Shown one piece after another: positions 14,211-31,698 of a stretch of DNA of 34,970 nt. The stretch spans positions 1 to 34,970 of the forward strand of contig CAMYXG010000001.1 in NCBI GenBank assembly GCA_947303225.1. The letters are read 5' to 3'. The position numbers and the translations under genes are program-made. The notes under the pieces were generated by a model, which saw only the letters and a program-made list of their open reading frames with translations, made no database searches and was not told the DNA's origin. The first letter of the stretch is position 1. Each line of letters starts with the position of its first letter. Source of the stretch: an uncultured Bacillales bacterium. Its GTDB lineage: Bacteria > Bacillota_I > Bacilli_A > RF39 > UBA660.

Positions 14211-15927
14211 ATGAAGAAAAAAGTGGTTGTATTGTTAGTTATTGCTTTTATTTTAGCATTGGTGTGGTTTTTAGTTTTATCTCCAATTTTTACTTTTCGT
14301 CAAAATGAAAAGATGGTGGAGAATGCTGCTAGGGAATATTTTGAATTAAATTCTAGAGAATTACCTACTGGGGAAAGAGTAAAGACAGTATCTTTAAAGA
14401 CATTGTATTATAATAAATTTTTGGAAAAAGATATTTATGTTCCTTTTCAAAGGAAGAACTGTTCCTTAGATGATAGTTGGGTAAAGGTAAAACGTGTAGA
14501 TGGAAAATATGAATATTATACCTATTTGGATTGTGGAATTATCAAGTCTTCTATTGATGCTAAGGGTCCAGAAATTCGTTTAAAGGGTAATACTACTATG
14601 TCTTTAAGCTTAGGAGAAGAATATCAAGAATTAGGAGTATCTAGTGTTGTAGATGATGTGGATGGTAATTTAAAGGTTGATGATGTTGTTATTAAGGGAA
14701 GTGTTGATACTTCTAAGATAGGAAATTATGAGATTACTTATACGGCTTTTGATCATTTAAGTAATAAAACAACTGTTACTAGAACTGTTCGTGTAGTTCA
14801 AAAGTTATATCAAACAGTGAAGAAGCAACTAAATGATTCTACGAATTATGTTGGGTATCCTGAAAATAATTATTTAAGACTTTCTAATATGCTTTTTCGT
14901 ATTTATGGTGTGGATGATAATAAGAATGTTATTATTGTTGCAGATGAAGATGTTACAAATGTTAATTATTCTAAAATAGATAAATGGTTAAAATACTATT
15001 ATGATCATTTAAATAAAAAGACAAAGAAAATGATTGTTCCATCAAAATATTGTAATATGACAATAGATGAGGCTAATCTTGGTACAAAAGAATGTAGTTC
15101 CTATACAAATAATAAAAAGGTATATATCCCTTCTGTAGTGGAAGTTAATAAAGCTCAGGGTACTGATAATAATTTTATGAAGACTAGAACTATGTCTTGG
15201 GTTTCTAATATGCAGGATGCGAAGAAAGCTTATTTAACAAGAGATGTTTTCTATTATTAAGCATATGGAAAGAGTTTTTTAGCTTATGATGCTGATGAGA
15301 ATTATGGAATTCGACCAATGATGGTAATTAAAGGTGGATCTCAAATTCAGAGTGGTGATGGTAGTTATGAAAAGCCTTATACTTTTGGAGATAGTAAGTC
15401 TGGTTCTGGTGGTTCTCTTCTTAAAGAACGCTCTACTGGAGAATACTTAGAGCTTAGTGGAATTTTATTCCGAATTATAGATGTGTGAAAATTCTGATAA
15501 AATAACATATGATCCAGCTGATAAAACGAGTGTAGCTTATTTTATTAATAATCGAATTAGTGAATATATTGATACTTCATTCTTTCAAAAGCATGAAATC
15601 GAAGTGCCAGTTTATAAAGATAAGATTATTTATGGTGAAGAAATTTCTAAGAAAAAGTATACTGTTTTGTTAGCAGCACCAGATATGTATGAAATGTTTA
15701 GTGCACAATCATCTACTTTACAAGGAAACATTTCTTTGTCTTATTGGTTAAGGAATACTTCTCAAGCAGAAAGAATAGGGGCTGCTGTATATGATGCTGG
15801 AGTACCTGTTAATGAGAAGATTAATTCTTTTGATCAGTATGGAATACGTGTTGAAGGATTTATTAAGGGTGATAGTGTAATTAACCGAGGAAATGGTACT
15901 CTAGCTTCACCTTATAAATTGAGATGA
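14211..15927 (+). pseudogene. Disrupted paralog of the membrane-anchored Ig-like/adhesin-like gene at 21626-23428
   Basis: ORFs 14211-15260 and 15481-15927 align with the N- and C-terminal parts of the 600-aa protein. An in-frame TAA at 15258-15260 is followed by 220 nt that still read through in the same frame (AYGKSFLAYDADENYGIRPMMVIKGG...GILFRIID). About 29 codons present in the paralog are then missing, and the frame shifts near 15480. Confidence 0.8.
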
Positions 15928-15946: not shown

Positions 15947-16744
15947 TTGAGGTTTAAAACTAAATATTTAATTATTAGTTGCTTATTGATTATTTTTGTT
16001 GTTGGAATATCATTTCTATTATCAAAAGAGAAAAGTCATTATCAAATTGAATCTAGGTTGTCAAATGTTCTTGCTACTAAGATTGATGTAGATAATGGGT
16101 TCCATACAATTGGTTGGATTCGTGTTCAAGGTACTAATATTGATTATCCTATTATTCGGTCGGATGATGTACATGCAAATTTTCCAGTTCAATTAGAAAG
16201 TTTTTCATGGTCTTTAAATCATGATGATCAATATCATAATCATATCATCTTGATGGGACATAATATTTTTAATCTTTCTGCTACTCCAAAAAGTCATGAT
16301 GAGAGATTTCATCGCTTTGAAGAATTAATGAATTTTGTTTATTATGATTTTGTAAAGGATAATCAGTTTATTCAATTAACGATTGATGGGAAAGAGTATC
16401 TTTATAGAGTGTTTGCTGTTGGTTTTTTAAATGAATCAGATCTTTATAGTCTTCTTTCTCCTGATGATTATTCAAAAAAAGATTTGAATCAGTATTATCA
16501 ATTGATGGATGATATTAATATTTATAATTATGATGTTGATGTGAATGAGAATGATGATATTATTACTCTTTCTACTTGTACTCGTCTTTTTGGAGATGGT
16601 TATAAAACTGGATTTTATGTAAGCGGAAGATTATTAAGAAAGGAAGAATCTACTTATCTTTCTTCCGTAAGAAAAAGTAAAAAGTATCAAGAAGTTGAAA
16701 AGATTTGGAAGGGAGATGTAACAGATAATGAAGATTATGCATAA
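15947..16744 (+). CDS. Sortase-fold protein, class B-like, N-terminally membrane anchored (cassette A)
   Basis: GWIRVQGTNIDYPII, IILMGHNIF (catalytic His context), YLYRVFAV and IITLSTCTR (catalytic Cys context) parallel the S. aureus SrtB motifs GWIKLSGTSLNYPVL, ILYGHH and IMTLSTC. TTG start after a gggggg RBS. Confidence 0.7.
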   Translation: MRFKTKYLIISCLLIIFVVGISFLLSKEKSHYQIESRLSNVLATKIDVDNGFHTIGWIRVQGTNIDYPIIRSDDVHANFPVQLESFSWSLNHDDQYHNHIILMGHNIFNLSATPKSHDERFHRFEELMNFVYYDFVKDNQFIQLTIDGKEYLYRVFAVGFLNESDLYSLLSPDDYSKKDLNQYYQLMDDINIYNYDVDVNENDDIITLSTCTRLFGDGYKTGFYVSGRLLRKEESTYLSSVRKSKKYQEVEKIWKGDVTDNEDYA

Positions 16745-19451
16745 AAAAATTATTATTCTTTTATTATTATTGATGGCTTTTATTCCTAGAACTGTATCAG
16801 CTACTATCAAAAAAGGGAATGGTTCTGAAACATGTACTAATTATATTAAAGACATGGATGATGGAACTGGATTTATTTCTAAGTATGGAATTAGTTTACA
16901 AACTAAGCAAGATAAGTTTGTTTTAAAAATAACTAAGTCAAAGATGTCTGCTGCTGCTAAAAAGGAAAAAGATGTTAAGTTTAAGATTGTGAAAATAGCA
17001 ACTTTTTCTCAGTATGATGATTATGACAATCCAATTTTCGATTCGGAAATTACTAGTGCAAAAGTGATTAAAAATGATTATATTCTATCTAATGATAATG
17101 CATTGGTTCCTGGTGGTACTTTAAATGTTAAGTTGATTGCAAAACCTGGGGTTGCTATATTTATAGAGCCAGATGGTTTTAGTGATTCTGAATTAACAAA
17201 AAAATGTGGTAGTAAAGCTTATTTTACTGTTTTATTTACTGGATTTCCTGCTGAAGGTGATATTCCAGAAACTGATGATGTAACAGATAAGGAAATAAAA
17301 AGTCCAGATGGTGACGATATTAGTAGTAAAAAAATCATAGATTGTAATAATTATAAGAATAAGGGGTGGAGTACATCTGGTTTTAATTATCAATTCTGTG
17401 ATGTTAAGACAAAAGCCATTCAAGCAAACGGTGGTGAAAAGAGTAATAGTGTTACTCAGAAATTGAAATGTGATGTTACAAAATGGAATTATACTTCAGA
17501 TTATTATGTCAATAAAACATATTTATGGAAAACGAAAACAAAAAATATTAAAAATGAAAAAGTTACTAATGAAGATGGTACAGAACAAAAACTTGGTAAT
17601 TTGGTTTATTATTATAACTATACTTGTGGAAATAAAAATGGGGATCCTCAGAATGTTGGTTCTTGTAAATTAACATGTGAAGAAGCTGTTATTGTTGAAT
17701 ATGGTCCTCCAATTGCTTCTAAAGCTGGACTTTGTTTTGAATATAAAGTGAAAGTTACAAGTCGTGTTAGTTGTGGTGTTGATCAATATCCACCAAAACC
17801 AACTAGAGGTAAATTATGTACGCCTTCTCCTCAATGTACGGTTCCAGGAAGTGGAATTGTGCATACACAAGGTGGACCTAATGAAGACTTTGATGCTTGT
17901 ATTCAATCTTGTGATGGTGGTAGTTATTCTGATAAGTGTAGTAATTTCTGTTATCAAAAAGTTTATGGCGATTCTAGTGTTAAAAAGACTTCTGGTTATG
18001 AGCTTAATTATGCAGATAAGTTAAATTCAGTAGTTAATTCTTCTACTGTAGAACAAGTTCGAAATGGAGCAACGACACATGAATACTATTGTGATAGTAA
18101 CAATAATATTATTTGGAATACTGGACCTACTGGTTTATCTAGAGATTCTAGTATGGGAAGGGGAAATCCAAATGATCCAAGATGGCATAGAGAGCATTCT
18201 AGTTGGGGTATTAGTCCAATGTCTGGCTATCAGTGTTATTCTGCAACTGGTATTCCAAGACGTTGTAATTGTGGAGAAACATGTACTTGGACAAAAGGAA
18301 GTTGCTCTAGTGTAACGAAATCTTATATGAATCCTGGTGAGGCTACTGATGCATATAATGATAATGTAGATCGTTATAATAATTACGTAAAGTATTGTAA
18401 TCGTGCTGCGACATGTACTACTACTACAGCTACTTTTACAATTAGTACTTCTGTAGGAAAAACTAAGTACACATTCCCATATTCTACGGATGCTGATCAA
18501 TTACAATATAAAGGACTAAAAACTAAGAAAACTATTCTTTCTAATAAAGGATGCTATTCTAGTGATGACTCAGAGGATCTTTCTCATGAATGGTATTTGG
18601 CAGAATGGAGTTTTCCTGGAACATTTATTCATAATAAGACTGGTGAGATATCTTATGAAAATAAAATAGAGAATTCTGGATGGCAAAAGGTTGATAAGAA
18701 ATTCTGTTTACCTCTTAATGCTCCTAGTGTTAATCAAAAATGGTGGAATTATTATTATACTAAAGAATCTAGTGGTTCTAAGACGTATTCTTTTGAGACA
18801 ACGGAATATAAAGATAATTGTCCTCAGACGTGTCGATTTACTACAGTTTCTAGTATTGCTCCTGGTGATATTTCAAAATGGAATATTAATGCTGTAACGA
18901 AAAAATTTGGACATTATGGTTGGAATATTACTATCTCTTGCTTCTATGCTTTAAATAATAATGTTACTTTAACGACAAAAAAATGTACAGTACCTGAGTG
19001 TAAAACATCTAATCCACAGGCTTATCGAATTCGTTCTGTTGATTTGGGTAACTTATTCCCTAATCCTGATGGTTCCTCAATATCTAATTATACTGAAATT
19101 GGAAGGGCTCCTGGATTCAATTGGAGTAGTAGCGCAAAAAATACTGTTAAGGATCCAAAATTAAAGAGTAATGCTAGTACCTATGCTAAGGCTGTTCAGA
19201 AGAAGGCTGATAAAGTATATAATTCTAGTTCTGAATTGGATTATCATATTTATTTGACTAAGGATATCATCAAAAAAATTAAATCAACTGGTCAGAATTA
19301 TACTTCATATTCAGGCTCTACAAGTATTACTAATGTTAGTCATTATCAAAGTGATTTAATTCGTAATGTAATTGGTGCAACTGAAATTCCTCAACCAGGA
19401 GATTTACAATGCAACAATTTACTTAATCGAAAATGTTCTACTAATAAATAA
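16728..19451 (+). CDS. Large secreted cysteine-rich protein of unknown family (cassette A, intact)
   Basis: 907-aa ORF. Signal peptide KKIIILLLLLMAFIPRTVSA|T. About 33 Cys by my count. No C-terminal sorting signal. Paralog of 24252-26930. Confidence 0.85.
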   Translation: MKIMHKKIIILLLLLMAFIPRTVSATIKKGNGSETCTNYIKDMDDGTGFISKYGISLQTKQDKFVLKITKSKMSAAAKKEKDVKFKIVKIATFSQYDDYDNPIFDSEITSAKVIKNDYILSNDNALVPGGTLNVKLIAKPGVAIFIEPDGFSDSELTKKCGSKAYFTVLFTGFPAEGDIPETDDVTDKEIKSPDGDDISSKKIIDCNNYKNKGWSTSGFNYQFCDVKTKAIQANGGEKSNSVTQKLKCDVTKWNYTSDYYVNKTYLWKTKTKNIKNEKVTNEDGTEQKLGNLVYYYNYTCGNKNGDPQNVGSCKLTCEEAVIVEYGPPIASKAGLCFEYKVKVTSRVSCGVDQYPPKPTRGKLCTPSPQCTVPGSGIVHTQGGPNEDFDACIQSCDGGSYSDKCSNFCYQKVYGDSSVKKTSGYELNYADKLNSVVNSSTVEQVRNGATTHEYYCDSNNNIIWNTGPTGLSRDSSMGRGNPNDPRWHREHSSWGISPMSGYQCYSATGIPRRCNCGETCTWTKGSCSSVTKSYMNPGEATDAYNDNVDRYNNYVKYCNRAATCTTTTATFTISTSVGKTKYTFPYSTDADQLQYKGLKTKKTILSNKGCYSSDDSEDLSHEWYLAEWSFPGTFIHNKTGEISYENKIENSGWQKVDKKFCLPLNAPSVNQKWWNYYYTKESSGSKTYSFETTEYKDNCPQTCRFTTVSSIAPGDISKWNINAVTKKFGHYGWNITISCFYALNNNVTLTTKKCTVPECKTSNPQAYRIRSVDLGNLFPNPDGSSISNYTEIGRAPGFNWSSSAKNTVKDPKLKSNASTYAKAVQKKADKVYNSSSELDYHIYLTKDIIKKIKSTGQNYTSYSGSTSITNVSHYQSDLIRNVIGATEIPQPGDLQCNNLLNRKCSTNK

Positions 19452-19473: not shown

Positions 19474-19962
19474 ATGAATAAAGGTATGTTAACGGTTGGA
19501 ATTATTCTTTTGAGTGTTATTGCATTATTATTAATTAATGTTTTAAATAATTATATGACTGGTGGGGAACTTGATTATTATTTAGTGAAGGAAACTGCTG
19601 ATGCTGCTATGGAAGATGCAATGGATAAAATGTATTTAAGAACATGCGGATTGCCACGTATGGATAAGGAAAAATTTGTAGAAAATTTTGTTTATCGTTT
19701 TGCAAATAGTGTCGATTCTAATCGTGAATATGATTTGAAATTTTATGACTTAAATGAAGTTCCTCCAAAGATTACTGTAGAAGTAAACTCGTTGACCGTT
19801 TTATCTTTTAATGTATCTGGAGAAAAAAATAGTAAACAAGCAGCTAATATTTCTACAAAATATAGTGCTATAGCAGAGTCTTCTTATTATAGTGATCCTG
19901 CTGTAGAAGAAGGTTTTACAAATAATATTTCTAAAAAAGATCAATGTAAACCTTATAAATAG
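19474..19962 (+). CDS. Small prepilin-like / N-terminally anchored protein (cassette A)
   Basis: RBS aaggaggg. A 4-residue leader MNKG is followed by a 20-residue hydrophobic stretch MLTVGIILLSVIALLLINVL. Two conserved Cys. Paralog of 26946-27464. Confidence 0.8.
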   Translation: MNKGMLTVGIILLSVIALLLINVLNNYMTGGELDYYLVKETADAAMEDAMDKMYLRTCGLPRMDKEKFVENFVYRFANSVDSNREYDLKFYDLNEVPPKITVEVNSLTVLSFNVSGEKNSKQAANISTKYSAIAESSYYSDPAVEEGFTNNISKKDQCKPYK

Positions 19963-20028: not shown

Positions 20029-20061
20029 TATATAGAATGATAATAGGGGAGTGTGAACTTT

Positions 20062-21615
20062 ATGATTTTTCGTAAACCTTATGCCTTTCTAATTAAGAAT
20101 TTTAAGAAAATTCATATATTTTTACTATTACTAAGTTTGTATGTTGCCTATAAATTAATTAATGTTAATCATTTTGTTGGGGAATTTATGAAATTTGGAT
20201 CTTACGATTATTTTCAAGATCCTATTACAAATCATATTACTATTTGGTTGAGGATATCTATTTTAGTATTAGTATTTGGTAGTACAGCATTACTATTTTT
20301 ATTACATCATAAAAAGAAGCCATGGAAAATATATTTAGTTCCTATTGTTGAATATCTTGCATTATTTTTTGTATTAGGAATGATTCGAAGTTTCTTTAAT
20401 AATTATTCTAGTGATATTGAGACGACAGATTTACGTCTATCTAGAGATTTATTAATGATATTTTTAATTGCTCAGATACCTGCAATTGGTATTTTTATGA
20501 TGCGTGTATTTGGGTTGGATATTCGTAAGTTTCATTTTAATTCTGATGAAGAATTCTTACAATTAAGTGAGGAAGATAGAGAAGAGTTTGAAGTTAATAT
20601 AAATATTGATCAGCATTCTTTTAAACGTGGTTATCGAAGATTTATTCGAAATATCAATTATTTTTATATAGAACATAAAAAAATATGTAGAACTATTATA
20701 GGAATTGTTGTTGCCGTAGCTCTTTTTCAGACCTATCGACTTATTTTTGTTACTCATAAGAGTTATCAAGAAGGAAATGACTATAGTGTTAATGGTTATA
20801 CTATAAAAGTACATAATAGTTACTATACAGATAAAGATTATACCGGAAATGTTATTTCTAAAAATAGCAATTTTATCGTAGTTGATTTAACGGTAACTAA
20901 TTATGATGCTCCTAGAAAGCTGAAAATAGATAATTTTCATATAAAAAATGGGACTAGTGATTTTGTATCTACTAGAAAAACATATGAAAAAGAGTTTCAA
21001 GATTTTGGGACTACTTATGAAAGTGTAAAAGAATTTAAAAGAGATGAATCTTTTCGGTTTATTATTATTTATAAAGTAGATAAAAATTTAAAGATTAATA
21101 ATTTTAATTTGTTTTATCAAGAACATGATTATTTACGTAAAATTAAATTACATGTAAAAGATTGTCGAGAAATAGAAGATGGAGGAACTATTTCTTCTGG
21201 AGATACTATGAATTTTATGCTTCAAGGAAAAGAGGAGAATATTTCATTTGATTATTTTGAATTTAATAGTGAAGTTTCTTATTTTGCAAGGTCTTGCAAT
21301 AGTGTGACTTGTTCAGTTAATGAGCAAACTTATACTGCAAGTGGTGATAATACGGTATTGAAAATTGACTTTGCTTCTGATACTTTTGAAGGAAAAGACA
21401 TGGTTGACTTTTCAAACGATTATGGTAAAATTGTTTATATAGATAATAGTAATGATGAGAATGAAAAGGTAGAGATTGATTTTCATTATCCTTTTTCTAA
21501 AAAAGCTACTGGTAAGTATTTGTATACTTTGGTTCCAAAGGTAGTTGAAAATTCTAGTAGTGTAGAAATTGTTTATACTGTTCGGAATAAGAGGTACGTA
21601 TATAAGTTGGTATAA
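20062..21615 (+). CDS. Polytopic membrane protein with a large C-terminal extracytoplasmic beta-rich domain
   Basis: Five hydrophobic segments in the first roughly 235 aa, then about 280 aa of non-hydrophobic sequence (YSVNGYTIKVHNSYY...FIVVDLTVTNYD...FHIKNG) reminiscent of DUF4352-type Ig-like domains. ATG 20062 is better spaced from RBS ggggag than the track GTG 20053. Confidence 0.7.
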   Translation: MIFRKPYAFLIKNFKKIHIFLLLLSLYVAYKLINVNHFVGEFMKFGSYDYFQDPITNHITIWLRISILVLVFGSTALLFLLHHKKKPWKIYLVPIVEYLALFFVLGMIRSFFNNYSSDIETTDLRLSRDLLMIFLIAQIPAIGIFMMRVFGLDIRKFHFNSDEEFLQLSEEDREEFEVNINIDQHSFKRGYRRFIRNINYFYIEHKKICRTIIGIVVAVALFQTYRLIFVTHKSYQEGNDYSVNGYTIKVHNSYYTDKDYTGNVISKNSNFIVVDLTVTNYDAPRKLKIDNFHIKNGTSDFVSTRKTYEKEFQDFGTTYESVKEFKRDESFRFIIIYKVDKNLKINNFNLFYQEHDYLRKIKLHVKDCREIEDGGTISSGDTMNFMLQGKEENISFDYFEFNSEVSYFARSCNSVTCSVNEQTYTASGDNTVLKIDFASDTFEGKDMVDFSNDYGKIVYIDNSNDENEKVEIDFHYPFSKKATGKYLYTLVPKVVENSSSVEIVYTVRNKRYVYKLV

Positions 21616-21625
21616 GGAGATATAT

Positions 21626-23428
21626 ATGAAAACAATAAATGATAATTTAAAATTAGTAGTTACTATCTTAATTGTTGGTTTATTTTTATGGTTTTTAGTT
21701 CTTTATCCTATCATTAATTTTCATAATAATGAAAGTTTATTAGAAAATGCTGCTAGAAGGTATTTTGAATTAAATCCAAATGATTTACCAACTGGTGAGA
21801 GAGTGAAAACTGTTACATTGGAGACGTTGTATCATAAGTCTTTTTTAGAAAAAGATTTATATGCTCCATATACAAGGAAGAATTGCTCTATCAGTAAAAG
21901 TTGGGTAAAGGTTCGTCGTGAAAACAATCAATATCAGTATTATGTTTATCTAGATTGTGGAGGTGCTCTACATTCCTTAACAGATCATAAAGGTCCTGAG
22001 ATACGGTTAAATGGAGATTTAGATGTTTCTGTTTCTCTTGGAGAAGATTTTACTGATCCTGGAGTAAAAAGTGTAATTGATGGAGTTGATGGTCGTTTAA
22101 AAAATGCTGAAGTTGTTACTAAGGGTAAAGTAGATACTTCTAAAGTTGGTACGTATGAGATTACTTATACAGCAACTGATCAATTGAGTAATAAGACAAC
22201 TGTTACTAGGACTGTTCAAGTTGTTCAAAAACTATATCAAACTATCCTTCAAAAATTAGATAATAGTCGTAATTTTGTGGGGAATCCTGATGATAATTAT
22301 TTAATACTATCTAATATGATGTTTCGTATTTATGGTGTTGATGATGCGAATGTTTTGATTGTTGCAGATGAAGATGTTGCCAATGTTAACTATTCTAAAT
22401 TAGATAGTTGGTTAGAGTATTATTACAATCATTTAAATTCAAAAACTAAAAAGATGATTGTTGCTTCTCAATTTTGTAATATGAAGGTAACAGATACTAG
22501 TTTAGATACTACGCAGTGTAATTCTTATACAAGAAAAAGAAGTGTATATATTCCTTCGATAGTGGAAGTTAATAAAGCTGGTACTATGGAAGATAATTTT
22601 ATGAAGACTTCTACCATGTCTTGGGTTGCTAATTCAAAGAGTGATAAACAGGCTTATGTTACACGTGATCTTTTCTTTGGTGATTCTTATGGTAAAAGTT
22701 ATTTACCATATAATATCACTGATAATTATGGAGTTAGACCTATGATGTTTATTAAGGGTGATTCTTTAATAACTGGTGGTGATGGTACTAGAGAGAATCC
22801 ATTTGTATTTGGTGATACGAAAAAAGGATCGACTGGTAAGCTTGTTCATGATCGATTTACAGGTGAATATATTACAGATGGTGGACTTTTATGGAGAATT
22901 ATTGAGCCTATAGACGATGGAACGACTAAAATCATTAGTGTTTCTAGTATTATTAATACTTCAGCAGATGTGACTTTTTATCCTGATCCAGATAGTGATA
23001 TTATTCAATATAATCCAAAAGATAAGATGAGTGTTGGATACTTTATTGAAAATGGGATTCGTTCTTACGTGGATACTTCTAAGTTTGTACGACATGTTGT
23101 AGAAGTTCCTATCTATAAAAATAAGATTATTTATGGTGAAGAGGTTGATACCAAAAAATATGAAGTAATGTTATCAGCACCGAATATGTATGAATTATTT
23201 AGTGCTCAAACAAAAAATATTATTGGAGAGTATTCTAAATCATATTGGTTAATTAATAGTTCTAATGGTAAACGTATTGCTGGAGCGATTACGGATATTG
23301 GAGTTCCAATTAATGAGCCGATTGAGTCATATGATTCATTAGGTGTGAGGGTTGTTGGATATTTGAAAAAAGATATCACTATAAGTAGTGGAAAGGGTAC
23401 AGAGGTTTCCCCTTATAGGATTAAATAG
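21626..23428 (+). CDS. Membrane-anchored surface protein: pilin-like N-terminus, Ig-like (DUF5011-type) domain, two WxxxS...GVRP-type modules (cassette B, intact)
   Basis: ATG 21626 lies 6 nt after aaggag; the track start 21569 overlaps the upstream gene. TM segment LVVTILIVGLFLWFLVL. GPEIRLNGDLDVSVSLGEDFTDPGV...GTYEITYTATDQLSNKTTVTRTVQVV resembles DUF5011 Ig-like domains. MSWVANS...NYGVRPMMFIKGD...GDGTRENPFVF and SYWLINS...LGVRVVGYL...GTEVSPYRI resemble the DUF6273-type motif. Confidence 0.8.
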   Translation: MKTINDNLKLVVTILIVGLFLWFLVLYPIINFHNNESLLENAARRYFELNPNDLPTGERVKTVTLETLYHKSFLEKDLYAPYTRKNCSISKSWVKVRRENNQYQYYVYLDCGGALHSLTDHKGPEIRLNGDLDVSVSLGEDFTDPGVKSVIDGVDGRLKNAEVVTKGKVDTSKVGTYEITYTATDQLSNKTTVTRTVQVVQKLYQTILQKLDNSRNFVGNPDDNYLILSNMMFRIYGVDDANVLIVADEDVANVNYSKLDSWLEYYYNHLNSKTKKMIVASQFCNMKVTDTSLDTTQCNSYTRKRSVYIPSIVEVNKAGTMEDNFMKTSTMSWVANSKSDKQAYVTRDLFFGDSYGKSYLPYNITDNYGVRPMMFIKGDSLITGGDGTRENPFVFGDTKKGSTGKLVHDRFTGEYITDGGLLWRIIEPIDDGTTKIISVSSIINTSADVTFYPDPDSDIIQYNPKDKMSVGYFIENGIRSYVDTSKFVRHVVEVPIYKNKIIYGEEVDTKKYEVMLSAPNMYELFSAQTKNIIGEYSKSYWLINSSNGKRIAGAITDIGVPINEPIESYDSLGVRVVGYLKKDITISSGKGTEVSPYRIK

Positions 23429-23443: not shown

Positions 23444-24286
23444 ATGAGTTGGAAAAAGAAAAGAATTTCAAAAAAAGAAAAAAAACAAAGACAAGTGATT
23501 TTATTAGTATCTCTTGTTGCATTGATTATTTTACTATTTGTAATAATGCTATGTGAAATATTTGTTACTCATAAAGATTTTTATGAAATGGAATCAAGAG
23601 TTTCCAATGTGGCGTTGGCACAAGATAGTAATAATGATAATTATCAAACTGCTGGTTGGTTGAAGGTTCAAGGAACTAACTTGGATTTGCCAGTTTTAAC
23701 AGGAATTGATAATGATATTGATTTTCCAGTAGAGATGGAAAAATATGTTTGGAATGTTGGTAATAAAAGAGGATTTCAAAAGAAAATTGATATAATGGGA
23801 CATAATATTTTTAATTTGTCTTCATCTCCTAAACTAACATCTGATTCTTTTAATCGATTTGAAGAATTGATGGGATTTGTTTATTATGATTTTGCAAAAG
23901 ATAATAAATATTTTCAAATTACAATTGATGGAAAAGATTATCTCTATAAAATATTCTCTGTAGATTTTATAGATGCTGTTGATGTAGATATGTTTCCAAG
24001 TGGAGATTATACAAGGGACGATATTCAATATCAGCTTGATTTATTTAAGAAAAATACGATTTATGATTATGATGTTGATGTAAATGAAGATGATAGTTTT
24101 GCTTCTTTGATTACCTGTACAAGATTTTTTGGAACGGAAGAATATATTGACTTTTTAGTTAATGGAAGACTTGTTCGTTCTAATGAAAAAATAAAAGATT
24201 ATGATATTAAGAAAACAAAAAATTATGCAAAAGTTGAAAAAGTATTGAAAGGTGATGATGACAATGATACGGACAGTTCGATGTAA
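23444..24286 (+). CDS. Sortase-fold protein, class B-like, N-terminally membrane anchored (cassette B)
   Basis: GWLKVQGTNLDLPVL, IDIMGHNIF, YLYKIFSV and ASLITCTR. Paralog of 15947-16744 with the candidate catalytic His and Cys conserved. Confidence 0.7.
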   Translation: MSWKKKRISKKEKKQRQVILLVSLVALIILLFVIMLCEIFVTHKDFYEMESRVSNVALAQDSNNDNYQTAGWLKVQGTNLDLPVLTGIDNDIDFPVEMEKYVWNVGNKRGFQKKIDIMGHNIFNLSSSPKLTSDSFNRFEELMGFVYYDFAKDNKYFQITIDGKDYLYKIFSVDFIDAVDVDMFPSGDYTRDDIQYQLDLFKKNTIYDYDVDVNEDDSFASLITCTRFFGTEEYIDFLVNGRLVRSNEKIKDYDIKKTKNYAKVEKVLKGDDDNDTDSSM

Positions 24287-24569
24287 GAGAATATTGGGGT
24301 TATCTATTCTAGTGCTTATTGTATCTGTTTTTTCATTCTTACAAGTTCAAGCAAAAACAAAAGAAGAATGGAAAGCATATTGTAAGGATTATCTTCCTAA
24401 TACGAAGTTTGTTTCAAGATATAATGCTACGATTGAAGAAGTTGATATTACAGATAGTGGTCTTGCTTCTAAATATAAAATATCAATTAATCCAAAGTCA
24501 TCTGATGCAGATTTAAAAAAGGCTTTGAGAAAAATTGTTTTTGTAGTTTCAGAGGTTAATGGTAAGTAA
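24252..24569 (+). CDS. N-terminal (signal-peptide) fragment of the cassette B cysteine-rich protein, ended by an in-frame TAA
   Basis: Signal peptide RILGLSILVLIVSVFSFLQVQA|K. It is in the same frame as 24654-26930, and the 84 nt between them contain no other stop. Confidence 0.6.
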   Translation: MMMTMIRTVRCKRILGLSILVLIVSVFSFLQVQAKTKEEWKAYCKDYLPNTKFVSRYNATIEEVDITDSGLASKYKISINPKSSDADLKKALRKIVFVVSEVNGK

Positions 24570-24653
24570 CAAGATGGAAAACAAACTGTTTCTTATAAAT
24601 ATCCACTTATCATTAAGGGTAGTTTTACAAAAGATTCTTCTGGAGAACAGAAG

Positions 24654-26930
24654 ATGGAAGTAAAGTTGACTTCTGTTGAAGAAAATGCTGATCCACATTG
24701 TATTGGAAAAGTTAATTTTACTCTTACTGTTGAAAAAATGGGAGATTCTTTTACTACTAAAGAACCAGTTAATCCTATTGTGGATGAGTTTGGTCAAACC
24801 GATGGTCAAGCTATTGACTGTAGTAAACCTCAAACTGAAGCTTTTGAAAAAGCATTTTGTGAGGCAAAAAATGGTGCTATGGCAGCTGATCCAAATAAGA
24901 AATTAGGATTAAACTATGATGGTAAATTTAATGATCACAAGACGTTTAAAGATGTTTTATCTGGTTATAAGGAATTAAAGTGTAGTGTAACTAATTTTAA
25001 TACAGTAAATGGTTATTATGTAAATAAGACATATTTATATGGATCTGGTGAAAACAATATGACGTTTGGTACTTATAAATATCATTATTCTCCAGGTGCT
25101 ATTACAAAAGGTGCTACTGTTAAATGTAAAGTAAAATGTGAGGAATCTGTTGTTGTTGAATATGGTCCTCCAATAGCTTCTAAAGCTGGATTGTGTTTTG
25201 AATATAAAGTAAAAGTAACGAGTCGTGTTAGTTGTAGTATGAGTGAAAAACCTGTTGTTCCTGAAGTACAAGATTCTTATTGTACTCCTACACCTATTTG
25301 TAGAACTAGTGCTGGTACTTATACTAATCAAGGTGGACCTAATGAAGAGTTTGATGCTTGTGTTAAGGCTTGTGATGGTGGTAAATATACTGATAAATGT
25401 TCTAAAAAATGTTATAGTAAAGTATATGGTAATGATTCCGCAAGTAAAACAACAACGGCTGGTAGAGAGTATTTAACGGAGAGACTTGCTTATTCTGAAA
25501 GTGCATTTAGTTTAGGAACTTGTATAAAAGAAAGCAGTTACCATGGATGTTATTATAGAAGTGGTGGCGGTATTAATTGGAAAGGACAAGCTGTTTCTAC
25601 TCCAGGAAGATGGTATTTAGTATATCCTCATAAAGATTTATCAGAATATGCTGTCTTTGGAAATGGAATTTATCGTCATGTATATTCTGATGGAAATCAT
25701 TGTCATGATGTTTGCTGGTGGGCAGGATGTAGTGGTAATGTTTATTTGAATCCTGGTCAAGCAGAAAAAGATAGAGAAAATAATAAAGAAATTTATGATA
25801 AAGCAGTTGCTAAATGTAAAGCTACTGCAACTTGTACAACAACTACTGCTGATTTTACAATCTCTGTTAATTATAAAGATGGTAGCAATACTGTTAAAAC
25901 GATTAACTTCCCTTATACAGAAAACAATAATTCAAAGGATCATTTAACTTCTAAAGGTGCTGCTAATGGTTACCAAGATACTGCTACGAATCATAATACT
26001 ACAATTCTAGATTATTCTGGATGTTATAAAGAAAAGAAAGCTTATCGTATTTATATGACTGAATGGAGTTTCCCAGGATCATGGATTAATAATAAGACAG
26101 GTGAAATTTCATATGTTAATAAGAATAATAATACTGCATGGCAAACATTAAAAGAAAAATTCTGTATACCTCTAGATGCTCAGAATGTTAATCAAAAATG
26201 GTGGAATTACTATTATAGTCGCGATATTATAAATCCAAATTATTCTACAAATAGTAGTTCATATCAACAAAATTGTATTGATCAGGGATATGGTGCTAAA
26301 CTTATTAAAACGATTACAGAAGATGATATTGAAGACTGGAATATTAAGGCACATACTAAGAACTTTGGATACTTTGGATGGAATATTAAGATTTCTTGCT
26401 TCTATGCATTGAATACTAATCCATCAAGTGTAACTAATACCAATTCTTCTACAAGTGTTCCTGATGCATGTCAATCTGGTTCTGCTTATCGAATTCGTTC
26501 TGTTGATTTAAATAATTTGTTCCCTGCTACAGATGGTTCAAATAATTCTAGAACACCTGGATTCAACTGGAGTGAATATGCAACTGTTACGAAGAAAGCA
26601 GAAAATGCTGCAAATAATTATTACACAATTAAGCCTGCAGAGTATGCTACGAAAGTACAAAAAGTTGGAGATAGTGTTTATTCTGATGAGTACTTAAATT
26701 ATTCAATTGATTTAACTCGTTCTATGATTGCTGCTTTGAAGAAGGAAAATAAAGCAATTGAAAATAATTATTCTGATTTCTCTGGAAAAACTGATACCAA
26801 TTATGTTATTAACTACCGTAGTCCATTATTTAGAGATGGTGGAATATTGAGTAGTAGTTCAAAATATCCTAATGAGGAATCATTAAAATGTAATAATATG
26901 AAGAAATTTAATGGTGGTTGTGAAGGATAG
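24654..26930 (+). CDS. Body of the cassette B cysteine-rich protein (no signal peptide of its own; probably one gene with 24252-24569)
   Basis: 758-aa ORF with about 28 Cys. It is colinear with residues from about 150 to the end of the 907-aa paralog and shares identical blocks: VEYGPPIASKAGLCFEYKVKVTSRVSC, ATCTTTTA, NKTGEISY, VNQKWWNYYY and AYRIRSVDL. Confidence 0.8.
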   Translation: MEVKLTSVEENADPHCIGKVNFTLTVEKMGDSFTTKEPVNPIVDEFGQTDGQAIDCSKPQTEAFEKAFCEAKNGAMAADPNKKLGLNYDGKFNDHKTFKDVLSGYKELKCSVTNFNTVNGYYVNKTYLYGSGENNMTFGTYKYHYSPGAITKGATVKCKVKCEESVVVEYGPPIASKAGLCFEYKVKVTSRVSCSMSEKPVVPEVQDSYCTPTPICRTSAGTYTNQGGPNEEFDACVKACDGGKYTDKCSKKCYSKVYGNDSASKTTTAGREYLTERLAYSESAFSLGTCIKESSYHGCYYRSGGGINWKGQAVSTPGRWYLVYPHKDLSEYAVFGNGIYRHVYSDGNHCHDVCWWAGCSGNVYLNPGQAEKDRENNKEIYDKAVAKCKATATCTTTTADFTISVNYKDGSNTVKTINFPYTENNNSKDHLTSKGAANGYQDTATNHNTTILDYSGCYKEKKAYRIYMTEWSFPGSWINNKTGEISYVNKNNNTAWQTLKEKFCIPLDAQNVNQKWWNYYYSRDIINPNYSTNSSSYQQNCIDQGYGAKLIKTITEDDIEDWNIKAHTKNFGYFGWNIKISCFYALNTNPSSVTNTNSSTSVPDACQSGSAYRIRSVDLNNLFPATDGSNNSRTPGFNWSEYATVTKKAENAANNYYTIKPAEYATKVQKVGDSVYSDEYLNYSIDLTRSMIAALKKENKAIENNYSDFSGKTDTNYVINYRSPLFRDGGILSSSSKYPNEESLKCNNMKKFNGGCEG

Positions 26931-26945: not shown

Positions 26946-27464
26946 ATGAATAAAGGTATGTTAACAGTTGGAATTATTTTGCTTAGTGTTATTGCTTTAT
27001 TATTAGTCAATGTACTATCTAGTTATTCCACTGGAAGTGAATTAGATTATTACTTAGTAAAAGAAACTACAGATGCTGCTATGGAAGATTCTATTGATAA
27101 GGTCTTCCTTAGACAGTGTGGTTTGTATCGAATTGATAAAGAAAAGTTCGTTGAGAGCTTTCTTTATCGATTTGCTGATAGTGTGGATGCTTCTCGTGAT
27201 TATCATATTAAATTTTATGATATTAATGAAGTTCCTCCAAAAGTAAGTGTTAAAGTAGATTCATTAACGGTTCTTTCTTTTAATGCTAAGACTGCTAATG
27301 GACAAACGAAGAATGCCGCAGATATTACTACAAACTATGATGCTATTTTGGAAACTAAATACTTATCTGATTTAGCTGTGGAAAATGGTTTGAAAGAGTC
27401 TGAACCAAGTTCAATTACTTATGATCAGTGTAGGGCATTAATTGAAATGAATGGAAAGAAATAA
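26946..27464 (+). CDS. Small prepilin-like / N-terminally anchored protein (cassette B)
   Basis: The first 20 residues, MNKGMLTVGIILLSVIALLL, are identical to the cassette A paralog. RBS aggagg. Confidence 0.8.
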   Translation: MNKGMLTVGIILLSVIALLLVNVLSSYSTGSELDYYLVKETTDAAMEDSIDKVFLRQCGLYRIDKEKFVESFLYRFADSVDASRDYHIKFYDINEVPPKVSVKVDSLTVLSFNAKTANGQTKNAADITTNYDAILETKYLSDLAVENGLKESEPSSITYDQCRALIEMNGKK

Positions 27465-27482: not shown

Positions 27483-28295
27483 ATGGGTAATTTATCTACT
27501 GGGTTAAAAAAGTTTATGCAAAATAAGAATACTGTTACAGTAGTTGGTGTTGTTGCTGCTATTATTGTATTGTATTTTGCTTATACTATGCGTATTAGTT
27601 CTGCTATTAATCCAATTCGAGTTCCTTATGCAAAGGAACAAATTCCTGCAGGTACTCAAATTACGGAAGCAATGATTGAGACGATGGAAGTACCTCCTTC
27701 AATGCTAGAGGGTGATGTAATTCAAAATACTGGTGAAATCATTGATAAGTATGCTGCTGCTGATACTGTTATTCCAGCTGGAAGTTTGTTTTATAAGCGA
27801 GCAGTGGTAGAAAAAGAACAATTGCCTGCTAATATTATTTTGGAATATCCAAAGGGATATGTTTTATATAATTTATCTGTTGATACTACTTCTACTTATG
27901 GTAATTCTGTATATCCAGGTAATTATATTGATATTTATTTAAAAGCAGTAAATGTTGTTGATGAGTCTAGTCCTGCTAATTTAACAAAAGATGCTGATAA
28001 GATTATGTTAGGAAAACTAATGGCTAATATTGAGGTATTAGCAGTTAAGGATGCTGATGGTCAACCAGTTTTCCAAAATATTGATGAGAATAGAGTTCCT
28101 GCTATGGTTGTATTTGCTCTTCCTGAGGAATACTATGTTCTTCTAAAAAAAGCAGAAGAGATGAGAACTTATGATACTTCAATTATTTTAGTTCCTACGA
28201 ATGAAAGTTTAAAAGATGAGCCAGCTGAACTTGAAATTAGTAGTGAACAATTAAAAGATTGGATTAATACTAATACTTTTTGGACAGATAATTAA
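27483..28295 (+). CDS. cpaB: Flp pilus assembly protein CpaB/RcpC-like (SAF plus RcpC-type domains)
   Basis: N-terminal TM segment. SAF-like IRVPYAKEQIPAGTQITEAMIETMEVPPSML...TVIPAGSLF, then RcpC-like GYVLYNLSVDTTSTYGNSVYPGNYIDIYL...IEVLAV...MVVFALPEEYYVLLKKAEE...IILVP. Confidence 0.75.
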   Translation: MGNLSTGLKKFMQNKNTVTVVGVVAAIIVLYFAYTMRISSAINPIRVPYAKEQIPAGTQITEAMIETMEVPPSMLEGDVIQNTGEIIDKYAAADTVIPAGSLFYKRAVVEKEQLPANIILEYPKGYVLYNLSVDTTSTYGNSVYPGNYIDIYLKAVNVVDESSPANLTKDADKIMLGKLMANIEVLAVKDADGQPVFQNIDENRVPAMVVFALPEEYYVLLKKAEEMRTYDTSIILVPTNESLKDEPAELEISSEQLKDWINTNTFWTDN

Positions 28296-28319: not shown

Positions 28320-29909
28320 ATGAACGAAAATATTTTTGATAAGTTAGATTTTGGACCTTTTCGTTCCTTATTGGATAATGATGATATAACTGATATTTCC
28401 TATGATAATAATGGTCAAATTTGGATTCGTTCTTTGACTCAGGGTTCTCTTAGAGTTGAAGTTGAAGGTGCGACTCCTGAATTTGTGGAAAAATTAGCTT
28501 TTCAATGTTCTAATGTTATGGGTACTACTTTTAATAATGCTAAACCTTTTTTAGATGCTGAATCTGCAGAGTTACGTATGAACTTTGTTCATCAAAGTAT
28601 TGCGACGAATGGGATTGCTCTTGTTATACGTAAAACTCCTGCTAAGATTCGTTTGGAAAAAGAAAAGTTAATTCAAGAAGATTATTTTACTCCTGCGATT
28701 CATGATTTTCTTATTAAATGTGTTGAGGGACATTGTAATATTATGGTTGCTGGAGAAACTGGTTCTGGTAAAACTGAGTTTGTTAAGTATTTGGCGAGTC
28801 ATACAAAGACTAATGAGAAAATTATTACGATTGAGGATACTTTGGAATTGCATTTAGATAAGATATTCCCTCAGCGTGATATTGTTTCTATGAAAACGAA
28901 TAATGTTGCTAGTTATTCTGATGTTTTAGTTACTTGTATGCGTCAGAATCCAAAATGGATTCTACTTTCGGAAGTTCGTTCCGCAGAGGCTGTTTCTGCT
29001 GTTCGTAACTCTATTTCATCAGGACATAATATTTTATCCACAATTCATGCGGATAAAGCATCTGCTATTCCATATCGTTTATATTCTTTGATGGAAACTG
29101 ATTTGGATGTTCATCAGTTTTTAACAACGATTTATCGTTATATTCAATTAGGTGTACATATTAAGGCTTTTTATAGTAAAGAATATGGAAAGTTTCATCG
29201 TGAATTAGATGAAGTTTGTGAATTTTATGTAGATGATGATAATGTTCCTCGTTCAAGGATTATTTATCAAAAACTATTTGGAAAACCTATGATGTGTAAA
29301 CCAAGTGCACATTTGGTTGAATATTTGGAAAATCAAAATATTCAAGTTCAAGATATTATTAAGGATTTGCCTGAAGAACTTCCTATACATAAATTTGAAG
29401 AGGAAAAGGATACTCAAGCAAAAGAAGGGGATACTCAAGAAGTATCTAAAGATGAAGAAACGGTTGCTCAGGAAACTGTTGCTGAAAATGATAATACTTC
29501 ATTAAATGATTCTATTGATTCTGCACAGGATGCTTCGGAGGTGGAAAAAACTCCAGATGTGATATCTCCACCAGTTTCAGTTACTCCTGATGCTAGTAGT
29601 GTTGTTTCATCTGTTCCAGAAGACGTTTCTGTAGCTTCTACACCTCCTACTGTTTCAGCACCTGCAGTTCCAGAGGTTACTCCTGTTGCGCCTACTTCTA
29701 CTGTTGAACAAGTTTCACAAGTTAATGATAGTGTAGGATCTGTTGCACCTGCTGTGAGTGTTCCGGTACCATCTGTTGCTAGTATTGCACCTGCGGTAAG
29801 TCCTATTGTTCCACAACAACAAGTTGTGATTCAAGCTAATGTTCCACCAACAGTTCCTCCTGTTGTTGGAGTTGCACCTGCTGTTGCAGTGGCTAAGCTT
29901 GGAGAATAA
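28320..29909 (+). CDS. tadA: TadA/CpaF-like (VirB11-type) secretion ATPase with a long low-complexity C-terminal tail
   Basis: Walker A VAGETGSGKTEF, Walker B-like WILLSEVRSAEA and His-box GHNILSTIHADKA. The last 170 aa or so are acidic and then P/V/S/A-rich. Confidence 0.85.
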   Translation: MNENIFDKLDFGPFRSLLDNDDITDISYDNNGQIWIRSLTQGSLRVEVEGATPEFVEKLAFQCSNVMGTTFNNAKPFLDAESAELRMNFVHQSIATNGIALVIRKTPAKIRLEKEKLIQEDYFTPAIHDFLIKCVEGHCNIMVAGETGSGKTEFVKYLASHTKTNEKIITIEDTLELHLDKIFPQRDIVSMKTNNVASYSDVLVTCMRQNPKWILLSEVRSAEAVSAVRNSISSGHNILSTIHADKASAIPYRLYSLMETDLDVHQFLTTIYRYIQLGVHIKAFYSKEYGKFHRELDEVCEFYVDDDNVPRSRIIYQKLFGKPMMCKPSAHLVEYLENQNIQVQDIIKDLPEELPIHKFEEEKDTQAKEGDTQEVSKDEETVAQETVAENDNTSLNDSIDSAQDASEVEKTPDVISPPVSVTPDASSVVSSVPEDVSVASTPPTVSAPAVPEVTPVAPTSTVEQVSQVNDSVGSVAPAVSVPVPSVASIAPAVSPIVPQQQVVIQANVPPTVPPVVGVAPAVAVAKLGE

Positions 29910-29923: not shown

Positions 29924-30826
29924 ATGTATATTGAAGAGTTATTCATTATTATTGTCTTTGTAGTTGCTATTTATTTATATAGAAATTATCAGGGAGATAA
30001 TGTAGGTAAATATGTATTGGAACAAGTACAAGGAGCTTACGATCGTTTTGCACCTTATTCTTTTAAGGTTGTTCGTGAAAAGACAAAGCAGTTGGGAGAA
30101 GAGTATACTCCTAGACAATATGCTATACAAGTTTCTTTATTTGCTTCTTTTGCTGCAGTTGTTACTTATTTATACTTTTATAATTTAATTATTAGTATTA
30201 TTTATGCTTTAATTGCTGTATCATTTGTTCCTTATTTGACTTATTTAAGATGTAAAAAGACTTATTCCGAATTTTTATTTGAACAAGTTCAAGTATACAC
30301 TTCTAATACTATTATGGAGTTTGCTACTACGCAGTCTTTTGTTAAAGCACTAGAAGGTGTTGCCAATTCCGGTATTTTGGAAGATCCTGTTCTTAGTGAT
30401 GTTCGTCAAATGATTACTATGTCTTATGATAATGGTACGATTGATGAAGCATTAGAATATATGAGTAAGTTATATCCTTATTATATTGTTAAGAATATGC
30501 ATCAGTTGTTTTTACAAATAACTAAAGAGGGTGCTCAAAATTCTGCAGATTCTCTTGAAAATATGCAGTTAGATATCGATATGCTTGTTGAAAGTGTGTA
30601 TCGAGATCGTATTGAACGTGCATCTTTCCACAAATCCTTTTTACAGTTTGGTATTATGCTGTATTTAATGGTTATGTTAGTTCAGTATTTGTTGGGAAGA
30701 GAAACCTATTTGGTACTACTAGAACGATGGTATATTCAAGTTCTAATGCATGGAGTACTGATTATTAATACATATTTCCTTTTAAAAGGTGAAAAATACT
30801 ATAATGAAAATGTAGGTGCTGAGTAA
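29924..30826 (+). CDS. tadB: TadB-like inner-membrane platform protein (T2SSF-type topology)
   Basis: Topology is N-terminal TM, TM pair, about 130-aa soluble domain, then C-terminal TM pair. It sits immediately after the ATPase and is coupled to the next gene by a TAATG overlap. The call rests on topology and synteny, not on a strong motif. Confidence 0.6.
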   Translation: MYIEELFIIIVFVVAIYLYRNYQGDNVGKYVLEQVQGAYDRFAPYSFKVVREKTKQLGEEYTPRQYAIQVSLFASFAAVVTYLYFYNLIISIIYALIAVSFVPYLTYLRCKKTYSEFLFEQVQVYTSNTIMEFATTQSFVKALEGVANSGILEDPVLSDVRQMITMSYDNGTIDEALEYMSKLYPYYIVKNMHQLFLQITKEGAQNSADSLENMQLDIDMLVESVYRDRIERASFHKSFLQFGIMLYLMVMLVQYLLGRETYLVLLERWYIQVLMHGVLIINTYFLLKGEKYYNENVGAE

Positions 30827-31664: not shown

Positions 31665-31698
31665 TTTATTGTATGATTAAGAAAGGATAGGTGAGTTG

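Follow-up and report, generated by a model that had tools for sequence, protein, structure and literature searches.

What does a secreted protein of 907 amino acids and 33 cysteines do beside the pilus genes of an uncultured member of the Bacilli? The question is raised by the gene CYS1, which lies in a 34,970-nucleotide stretch of an uncultured Bacillales genome (assembly GCA_947303225.1, contig CAMYXG010000001.1; "the window" below means the whole of this stretch) and has a second, interrupted copy, CYS2, downstream. A preliminary description of the window had drawn attention to both copies. We give a probability of about 0.45 to the reading that the CYS protein is a surface-presented contact or adhesin subunit of a Tad-like pilus and type IV secretion apparatus. 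A target-facing role is suggested because the protein evolves faster than any other component of its gene cluster, because its N-terminal heads are unrecognizable or replaced among relatives, and because its module occurs in duplicate and in stand-alone form.

The Cys-rich exoprotein and its family

The features of the two copies are as follows.

16728-19451, + strand: Cys-rich exoprotein gene CYS1, an intact open reading frame (ORF) of 907 amino acids with 33 Cys
16728-16802, + strand: Sec-type signal peptide of CYS1, residues 1-25, cleavage predicted after VSA from the sequence pattern
16803-17597, + strand: variable N-terminal head of CYS1, residues ∼26-290, with conserved C36, C160, C206, C224, and C248
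17598-19448, + strand: conserved Cys-rich core of CYS1, residues ∼291-907, from the AlphaFold2 model and invariant columns
17898-17951, + strand: twin CX3C motif of CYS1, C391-x3-C395-x8-C404-x3-C408, all four Cys invariant in 296 family members
24252-26930, + strand: paralog CYS2, with 30 Cys and an in-frame TAA at 24567-24569 that interrupts the gene

The CYS1 ORF is intact, and the Sec signal peptide that the preliminary description assigned to its product was borne out. The N terminus reads MKIMHKK-IIILLLLLMAFI-PRTVSA/T (the slash marks the predicted cleavage), which matches a Sec signal peptide in its basic, hydrophobic, and AxA parts. The same pattern of an N-terminal basic stretch and a hydrophobic core was found in 215 of 219 full-length CYS homologs, and the family consensus signal peptide ends in VxA. 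Beyond residue 40, CYS1 has no transmembrane-like 19-residue window (the maximum Kyte-Doolittle mean is 1.06), and none of the 219 homologs has a transmembrane-like segment beyond residue 60. Because the signal-peptide pattern is kept across the family with no further transmembrane segment, the product is probably exported via Sec as a soluble, extracellular, multidomain protein. The number of Cys in CYS1, given earlier as about 33, is exactly 33 (3.64%), and all eight of the Cys clusters quoted for it are present. The other 33 ORFs of the window together have 91 Cys in 9132 amino acids (1.0%), and the enrichment in CYS1 over the rest of the window has a binomial P value of 5e-10.

No family could be recognized from the sequence in the preliminary description, and database searches gave the same result. 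In Pfam, nothing scored above threshold for either copy, the sole match being Alpha-amy_C_pro at E = 0.029, which we treated as noise; NCBIfam gave no match for either copy. A PDB sequence search with the single CYS1 protein gave no match, and a profile built from 82 sequences matched only a collagenase in the PDB, over 37 residues at E = 0.081, which was rejected. The structural check that had been proposed, AlphaFold followed by Foldseek, was also run. The AlphaFold2 model of CYS1, computed on the 82-sequence alignment, has a mean predicted local distance difference test score (pLDDT) of 79.8 and a predicted template modeling score (pTM) of 0.60. In it, an N-terminal region of mixed alpha and beta structure leads into a beta-rich domain (residues 243-371) and then into a hairpin of two helices (386-413). 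Next come an irregular stretch rich in Cys and a long helix (538-560), and after these another beta-rich domain (568-742) and, at the C terminus, an alpha/beta domain. With the full model, Foldseek found nothing at E < 0.1 in the PDB and nothing at E < 0.26 in BFVD; the best matches in the two collections (E of 0.26 to 0.4, template modeling scores of <0.1) were rejected. The CYS proteins are thus a new protein family, and their predicted fold is without known relative.

A word-indexed search returned 318 CYS homologs, none of them named and none with a Pfam domain. An exhaustive profile search of 1.84 billion representatives yielded 669 CYS clusters at 50% identity, likewise unnamed; for 466 of these, E was ≤ 1e-30. 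For the analysis of synteny, one genome per GTDB species was scanned, giving 175 relatives, of which 78 loci were kept. All 78 are from gut or rumen metagenome-assembled genomes labeled as uncultured Erysipelotrichaceae, Bacilli, Mollicutes, Tenericutes, or "Mycoplasma sp. CAG:877," labels that probably stand for reduced-genome gut Bacilli such as RF39. As found, the family is compact and lineage-restricted, being confined to abundant uncultured low-GC Bacilli of the gut and rumen.

Probable disulfides and the variable head

Cys counts and Cys conservation bear on the disulfides at which the preliminary description had guessed. Across 296 non-identical full-length members, 27 Cys positions reach a conservation of at least 75%, and 10 of these 27 are never missing. 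The mature chain has an odd number of Cys in 266 of the 296 members, falling into classes of 23, 25, 27, and so on up to 41 (naive P = 2e-48). A bias toward even Cys counts has been used in published computational work to recognize the use of disulfides (Daniels et al., PMC2823432). The cytoplasmic proteins of the cluster are without parity bias (34 even and 27 odd for the ATPase, 22 even and 36 odd for the TadB-like protein), and the other exported proteins of the operon have even counts, with 0 or 2 Cys in 68 of 72 DUF5411 proteins and mostly 4 in the pseudopilin-like proteins.

Cys are also gained and lost in pairs across the family. Presence and absence are correlated for positions 503/513 (r = 0.99), 206/224 (r = 0.97), and 895/903 (r = 0.88), and 451/482 and 489/510 are further pairs gained or lost jointly. 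C313 and C557 were lost together in 6 of 6 cases and C336 and C660 in 4 of 4, and C364 and C526 share 6 joint losses, out of 8 for C364 and 11 for C526. Co-loss suggests disulfides C313-C557, C336-C660, C364-C526, and C895-C903, and correlated presence and absence suggest C503-C513. Since several of the co-lost partners lie 160 to 320 residues apart, the core would be cross-stapled, and the predicted C895-C903 pair would close a conserved disulfide loop at the C terminus of the family. Taken together, parity and pairwise gain and loss strongly suggest that the protein is stabilized by ∼13 to 16 disulfides, and the consistently odd count points to one conserved unpaired Cys in addition. The single-loss patterns across family members did not single out this unpaired Cys. 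Reactive-thiol chemistry is formally open to it; no thioester-domain family of the kind found in thioester-domain adhesins was present in Pfam searches of CYS1, and no such structure was present among its Foldseek PDB matches. In the model, the twin CX3C Cys sit in two consecutive helices, H386-396 and H402-413. The same motif forms the hairpins of the small Tim/CHCH proteins, but no homology is involved, and unlike in the small Tim proteins, it is here an 18-residue element inside a 900-residue bacterial exoprotein.

It had been argued that the depletion of Cys from exported proteins of low-GC Gram-positives makes this protein anomalous. The Cys content is indeed extreme, but the rest of the argument does not carry over, as Cys exclusion was shown for aerobic Firmicutes and not for anaerobic gut lineages (Daniels et al., PMC2823432). 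Since the other exported proteins of the operon carry even Cys counts, the lineage evidently uses disulfides, and the CYS protein is an extreme case rather than an isolated anomaly. At least one Firmicute lineage would thus build heavily disulfide-bonded exoproteins, contrary to the usual picture of Cys avoidance.

The division of the protein into a variable head and a conserved Cys-rich core, also put forward in the preliminary description, was supported. Column conservation is 0.15 to 0.5 in the head versus 0.5 to 0.73 in the core, and the CYS1 head (residues 26-290) was recognized by phmmer in 1 of the 84 family ORFs from the 78 genomes. CYS1 and CYS2 are 36% identical overall, with 23% identity over residues 1-290 and 42% over residues 291-907, in line with the divergence first noted for the N-terminal ∼250 residues; the two copies are old paralogs. 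Several relatives have an unrelated N terminus, and in two of these it contains the PF09479 Listeria-Bacteroides surface repeat. The terms "stalk" and "toxin-like cargo," which accompanied the original proposal, are not supported: no repeat or stalk architecture, toxin domain, or cell-wall anchor was found.

All nine sequence blocks said to be shared with the paralog are present in CYS2, but an in-frame TAA at its codon 106 had been overlooked. It splits the gene into a 105-residue signal-peptide fragment and a 758-residue ORF without signal peptide, and the ORF caller accordingly divides CYS2 into 24252-24569 and 24654-26930. CYS2 as assembled is therefore a pseudogene or, less likely, the product of a base-call error.

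The gene cluster and the possible role of the protein

We compared gene order around the CYS genes in a phmmer synteny table of the 78 loci. The order is almost invariant: a 520-residue polytopic membrane protein, a ∼600-residue Ig-like/DUF6273 protein, a ∼275-residue class-B-like sortase, CYS, DUF5411, a CpaB/RcpC-like protein, a T2SSE ATPase, membrane proteins of 300 and 267 residues, one or two pseudopilin-like proteins, a ∼338-residue protein, and two VirB2-like membrane proteins. The sortase-like gene lies immediately 5′ of all but two family ORFs in these loci, and it overlaps the CYS start in both window copies and in the related loci L080 and L081. Lineages that are without the Ig-like and 520-residue genes retain the sortase-like, CYS, and DUF5411 genes (all three in L068; L077 is truncated after CYS), and the sortase-like enzyme, the CYS protein, and the DUF5411 membrane protein are the three-gene core of the module. 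Some genomes have a second module, and one copy lies far from machine genes. This copy, at L079:4480-10489, consists of stand-alone Ig-like, sortase-like, CYS (974 amino acids), and DUF5411 genes flanked by ABC transporter and housekeeping genes.

The window contig stops before the region that in related loci encodes VirB6-, VirB4-, and VirD4-like proteins, and of the type IV secretion set only the two VirB2-like genes lie inside the window. In L080 (17627-20489) and L081 (11988-21011), genes for TrbL/VirB6-like, VirB4-like, 800-residue SpoIID-domain, and VirD4/TrwB-like proteins (families TrbL_4, AAA_10/P-loop_TraG, SpoIID, and T4SS-DNA_transf/TrwB) lie directly downstream, so that the Tad-like cluster is physically continuous with a monoderm type IV secretion set, whose VirB4, VirB6-like, cell-wall hydrolase, and VirD4 components are all present there; the two loci end at the gene for the coupling protein. 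In the window, no + strand terminator-like site was found between 13000 and 32000. The cluster adjoins greA in 57 of the 78 loci, tblastn of the CYS protein against plasmid and phage collections gave no match, and neither did tblastn of DUF5411 against the plasmid collection; placement beside greA and the lack of plasmid or phage matches argue against current mobility. The cluster thus appears to be a chromosomal, vertically inherited unit of ∼25 to 30 kb that holds Tad-like (type IVc/archaeal-type) pilus genes and monoderm type IV secretion genes. Literature searches on DUF5411, on RF39 with Tad, and on Tad with VirB4 in Firmicutes returned no description of the cluster or of the CYS family. 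CYS thus flags a conserved, undescribed cluster in which genes for a Tad-like pilus and for type IV secretion are joined and a sortase-like enzyme has no canonical substrate. The module of which CYS is a fixed member stands at the head of the Tad-like genes, a context on which the preliminary description had not drawn.

We then compared evolutionary rates, expressed for each protein of the window as the median identity to its orthologs across the 78 genomes. The values are 90% for GreA, 80% for the 300- and 267-residue membrane proteins, 70% for the ATPase, 69% for the CpaB-like protein, 64% for DUF5411, 49% for the Ig-like protein, 39% for the sortase-like protein, and 33% for the Cys-rich protein. 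The CYS protein is the fastest-evolving component of the cluster.

If the protein is a contact subunit, its conserved, disulfide-stapled core of ∼600 residues would dock on the machine or fibre, for which DUF5411, the sortase-like protein, and the pseudopilins are candidate partners, and the fast-evolving N-terminal head of ∼270 residues would bind the target, be it another cell or the surface of a host. Additional module copies may then supply alternative heads. CYS would be the specificity determinant for partner or host binding and would offer a handle for co-culture experiments, antibodies, and tests of contact dependence.

Several results weigh against this reading. Searches of CYS by sequence and by fold gave no adhesin, lectin, Ig, vWA, or propeller domain, so that the case for an adhesin role is one of genomic context and evolutionary rate. 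DUF5411 has no structural match to pilins, which leaves a tip-complex model without direct support. CYS1 has no LPXTG-type sorting signal, transmembrane segment, or lipobox by which it could be anchored. On the pilus side, the proteins in the TadB/TadC and TadZ positions have no Pfam, NCBIfam, or PDB sequence match, their Tad labels being positional, and no A24/TadV prepilin peptidase was present among the 29 window ORFs (13691-34818) covered by the Pfam scan. Within one species-level cluster at 90% identity, the 30 variable columns are not concentrated in the head, and there is thus no sign of diversifying selection at strain level in that cluster. All CYS members are, moreover, known from sequence alone.

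An extension of the contact-subunit reading, which we regard as unlikely, is that the sortase-like/CYS/DUF5411 module serves as the partner-recognition device of an undescribed hybrid nanomachine, part Tad-like pilus and part monoderm type IV secretion system, that is chromosomally fixed in reduced-genome gut and rumen Bacilli. The machine would mediate attachment to cells and exchange of DNA or protein, and CYS would be tethered covalently, either by the sortase acting without a C-terminal sorting signal or via the unpaired Cys. A machine of this kind would parallel, within the Firmicutes, the pili and type IV secretion systems that Patescibacteria epibionts have.

An alternative that we also consider doubtful makes CYS a structural part of the envelope. 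Together with the CpaB-like protein and DUF5411, it would form a wall-spanning conduit or cap for the pilus or channel, a monoderm substitute for a secretin and alignment complex, to which the disulfides would lend rigidity. A part of this kind could explain why CYS is kept one-to-one with the machine in the 78 genomes, two genes upstream of the CpaB-like gene, and why its conserved core is large and rich in invariant residues, with no adhesin domain found. However, its identity of 33% contrasts with 64 to 80% for the recognized machine parts, its head is essentially unalignable between genomes, extra modules occur away from machine genes (L079), and the protein has no transmembrane or amphipathic segment that could serve as an anchor.

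Somewhat less probable again is that CYS is a sortase substrate, joined to peptidoglycan or polymerized into a fibre via a non-canonical signal. The sortase-like gene directly precedes and overlaps CYS, and its catalytic residues (the His of GHN, the Cys of TC, and an Arg) are conserved in 82 homologs; the two are also the fastest-evolving genes of the cluster, as expected for a co-evolving enzyme-substrate pair. Like sortase-anchored proteins, CYS has a dedicated sortase-like gene alongside, but it has no C-terminal sorting signal. When the window and 81 loci were scanned for such motifs, no canonical substrate emerged: in all 82 sources, CYS and every other + strand cluster gene are without a C-terminal sorting motif, hydrophobic segment, and basic tail. 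The C terminus of CYS is instead the predicted disulfide loop C895-C903, and no pilin-type Lys motif was identified. This proposal is compatible with an adhesin role, for which it would supply the tethering mechanism.

It is improbable that CYS serves the apparatus as a secreted substrate or effector, one that leaves the cytoplasm via Sec and is afterward set free or passed on to a target cell. An effector would be expected to resemble CYS in having a signal peptide without an anchor, rapid evolution, and variable N termini, and disulfide-rich architecture is common in secreted toxins. But neither a toxin or enzyme feature nor an immunity-like one was found, a small cognate immunity gene is absent as well, and the genes next to CYS encode a sortase-like enzyme and a membrane protein that is highly conserved. 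The most conserved part of the protein is a large core rather than a delivery domain, and type IV secretion normally takes its substrates from the cytoplasm, not from among Sec-exported proteins. Finally, it is very improbable that the Cys bind metals or do redox chemistry (as zinc ribbons, Fe-S centers, or a thiol relay) rather than form structural disulfides, because, even though CX3C and CxC spacings can ligate metals, the host is presumably an anaerobe in a reducing habitat, and one conserved Cys is unpaired, the pairwise gain and loss and the parity over ten count classes fit bonds with two partners and not four-ligand sites, co-lost partners lie 200 to 320 residues apart, and no His/Asp co-ligand pattern or cofactor-binding family was detected.

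The contact-subunit reading has functional analogies in characterized systems. PilY1 and PilC of Pseudomonas and Neisseria are Sec-exported non-pilin tip adhesins of ∼1000 residues with a variable N-terminal and a conserved C-terminal part. Like them, CYS is a large non-pilin with a Sec signal that is encoded in a type IV filament cluster, the pseudopilin-like genes lying 5 kb (from CYS2) to 12.5 kb (from CYS1) downstream of the Cys-rich genes. Unlike them, it has no beta-propeller by Pfam or by Foldseek against the PDB (none at E < 0.1), its C-terminal region being alpha/beta. It is also Cys-rich, coupled to a sortase-like gene, and part of a monoderm Tad-like system, in contrast to these type IVa proteins, and it is not a member of their family. 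In IncI1 R64 and in PAPI-1-type elements, a type IVb thin pilus is joined to type IV secretion, and PilV adhesin ends select the partner; these are mobile elements of diderm Proteobacteria, and their adhesin, a true pilin, owes its variation to a shufflon. The present cluster likewise joins type IV pilus genes to type IV secretion genes but is chromosomal and syntenic with greA in dozens of species, and its variable protein is not a pilin. TraN of F-type conjugation is a large, exported, Cys-rich outer-membrane protein of diderms that mediates contact with the partner cell; CYS resembles it by analogy only, with no Pfam or PDB sequence match and no fold match. With Tad (type IVc) systems, the cluster shares a CpaF/TadA-type ATPase.

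Also comparable is an uncharacterized operon flagged computationally in Roseburia, Ruminococcus, and Eubacterium, which encodes CpaF, PilC/GspF, DUF5411, and internalin-like proteins (Miller et al. 2022, PMC9523054). It has DUF5411, a CpaF-type ATPase, a surface-protein gene, and a Gram-positive gut host in common with the present cluster, but it belongs to Clostridia, and no Cys-rich giant, sortase-like, or type IV secretion genes are mentioned for it. Patescibacteria epibionts with reduced genomes are described as having, together with type IV pili, a type IV secretion gene set of monoderm type that is fixed in the chromosome and thought to serve cell-cell association and not plasmid spread (PMC12102498; PMC10633639). 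They are of a different phylum, and the text of PMC12102498 mentions no Tad, sortase, or Cys-rich protein. A tad locus of Bulleidia (PMC12786226) is a different, conventional one.

Neighboring genes in the window

The remaining genes of the two modules and of the downstream machine are listed below.

14211-15927, + strand: Ig-like/DUF6273 surface-protein gene of module 1, PF16403 E = 8e-19, decayed
15947-16744, + strand: class-B-like sortase gene 1, Pfam Sortase E = 4.7e-8, 3′ end overlapping the CYS1 start by 17 nucleotides
19474-19962, + strand: DUF5411 gene a, bitopic membrane protein directly 3′ of CYS1, PF17424 E = 6.7e-40
20053-21615, + strand: 520-residue polytopic membrane protein, the usual cluster opener, 5′ of the Ig-like gene in nearly all 78 loci, no Pfam family
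21569-23428, + strand: Ig-like/DUF6273 gene of module 2, intact, PF16403 E = 8e-20 and PF19789 E = 3.6e-7
23444-24286, + strand: class-B-like sortase gene 2, Pfam Sortase E = 2.3e-4 (below gathering), overlapping the CYS2 start by 35 nucleotides
26946-27464, + strand: DUF5411 gene b, PF17424 E = 1.3e-44, homologs 67-86% identical among the best matches listed
27483-28295, + strand: CpaB/RcpC-like protein, PF08666 SAF 23.1 bits (above cut-off) and PF16976 RcpC E = 7e-6
28320-29909, + strand: FlaI/CpaF-type secretion or pilus ATPase, PF00437 E = 1.5e-27
29924-31629, + strand: two polytopic membrane proteins of 300 and 267 residues in TadB/TadC position, so labeled from position, size, and topology only
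31696-31866, + strand: 56-residue Flp-like pilin candidate, MMKAATG/ELNLTVITLIAIAAVIGFFW..., from the small-ORF listing
31939-32831, + strand: two pseudopilin-like proteins of 146 and 144 residues, with an M(R/K)DAxGG leader and hydrophobic helix, from N termini in the 78 loci
32857-33873, + strand: 338-residue protein in TadZ position (a positional label), no Pfam or PDB match
33932-34818, + strand: two small membrane proteins, VirB2-type pilin-like, PF18895 E = 0.009; the window ends 152 nucleotides later

One gene is broken in each of the duplicated modules: the pilus-proximal CYS gene, by the TAA at 24567-24569, and the distal Ig-like gene, by a TAA at 15258-15260 and a lesion at ∼15487. 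The intact genes of the two modules are thus complementary, the Cys-rich gene being the distal and the Ig-like gene the proximal one. Compared with the intact 619-residue copy, the module 1 Ig-like gene has the in-frame TAA at 15258-15260 and then a frameshift or deletion near 15487. The module 2 Ig-like protein has an N-terminal transmembrane helix, a likely start at ATG 21626, and conservation in 76 homologs. Just outside that helix, at residues ∼73-78 of ORF 21569-23428, a motif LPTGxR is conserved in the 76 homologs; it looks like a sortase site, yet it is at the wrong end of the protein. Two other sortase-site look-alikes, NKTGE and the NPQ near residue 762 of CYS1, were judged coincidental, being either not conserved or inside a confidently folded domain.

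The product of sortase gene 1 matches TIGR03064 at E = 5e-14, below the family cut-off, and its best PDB matches are the SrtB proteins of C. difficile and C. perfringens; the product of sortase gene 2 is 41% identical to it. In the model of DUF5411 from gene a (pLDDT 71.6), residues 3-48 form a long helix at the N terminus, and a small alpha/beta domain comes after it. The long helix is pilin-like, but Foldseek against the PDB found no pilin, so that a minor pilin is a possibility only.

The RcpC score of the CpaB/RcpC-like protein, 26.4 bits, is just under the gathering score of 28.8 bits. The best PDB matches of the ATPase are FlaI (4.6e-19, residues 5-301) and CpaF (3.4e-18, residues 5-256), which rank before VirB11 (7e-14). 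Its C-terminal tail of ∼150 residues (∼380-529) is of low complexity and rich in Ser, Pro, Val, and Ala, which is unusual for a cytoplasmic motor ATPase, and ortholog lengths across genomes range from 376 to 737 amino acids. The 300- and 267-residue membrane proteins gave no Pfam or PDB sequence match, and the pseudopilin-like proteins gave no Pfam match. The 338-residue protein has 3984 homologs, with 71 to 88% identity among the best matches listed.

The Flp-like pilin candidate, an unannotated gene, is placed after the gene of the 267-residue membrane protein and before the pseudopilin-like genes. Flp-like pilin genes occupy the same position in L080 (14523-14723) and L081 (8863-9012), with lengths of 49 to 66 amino acids, and the first 26 or 27 residues of the candidate are identical in the window, L080, and L081. 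The candidate reads KAATG/ELNLTV, without EY at +5/+6, and so departs from the Flp G/xxxxEY motif. Of the promoter-like sites on the + strand in this region, the best one precedes the window gene, at 31636-31664; it reads TTGATA-17-TATAAT and has an extended TG. The L081 orthologs of the two VirB2-like proteins match PF18895 at E = 0.001 and 0.0025. The second of these proteins (34324-34818 in the window) is ∼150 to 200 residues long in some lineages and 360 to 500 residues long, with up to 13 Cys, in others (orthologs from L023 to L076), which suggests a lineage-specific extracellular extension in the long forms.

The flank upstream of the cluster, assigned by reading, encodes a histidine kinase, rhomboid, RuvX-like, and MltG-like proteins, U32 peptidases, an HD protein, and GreA; no integrase or other mobility gene was noticed among its ORFs on reading. 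For the U32, HD, and GreA genes, precomputed Pfam matches exist on the L080 orthologs. Over the window (1-34970), GC content is 26 to 34% and GC skew is strongly positive throughout (0.16 to 0.38), and the substantial genes are all on the + strand except 4746-5204.

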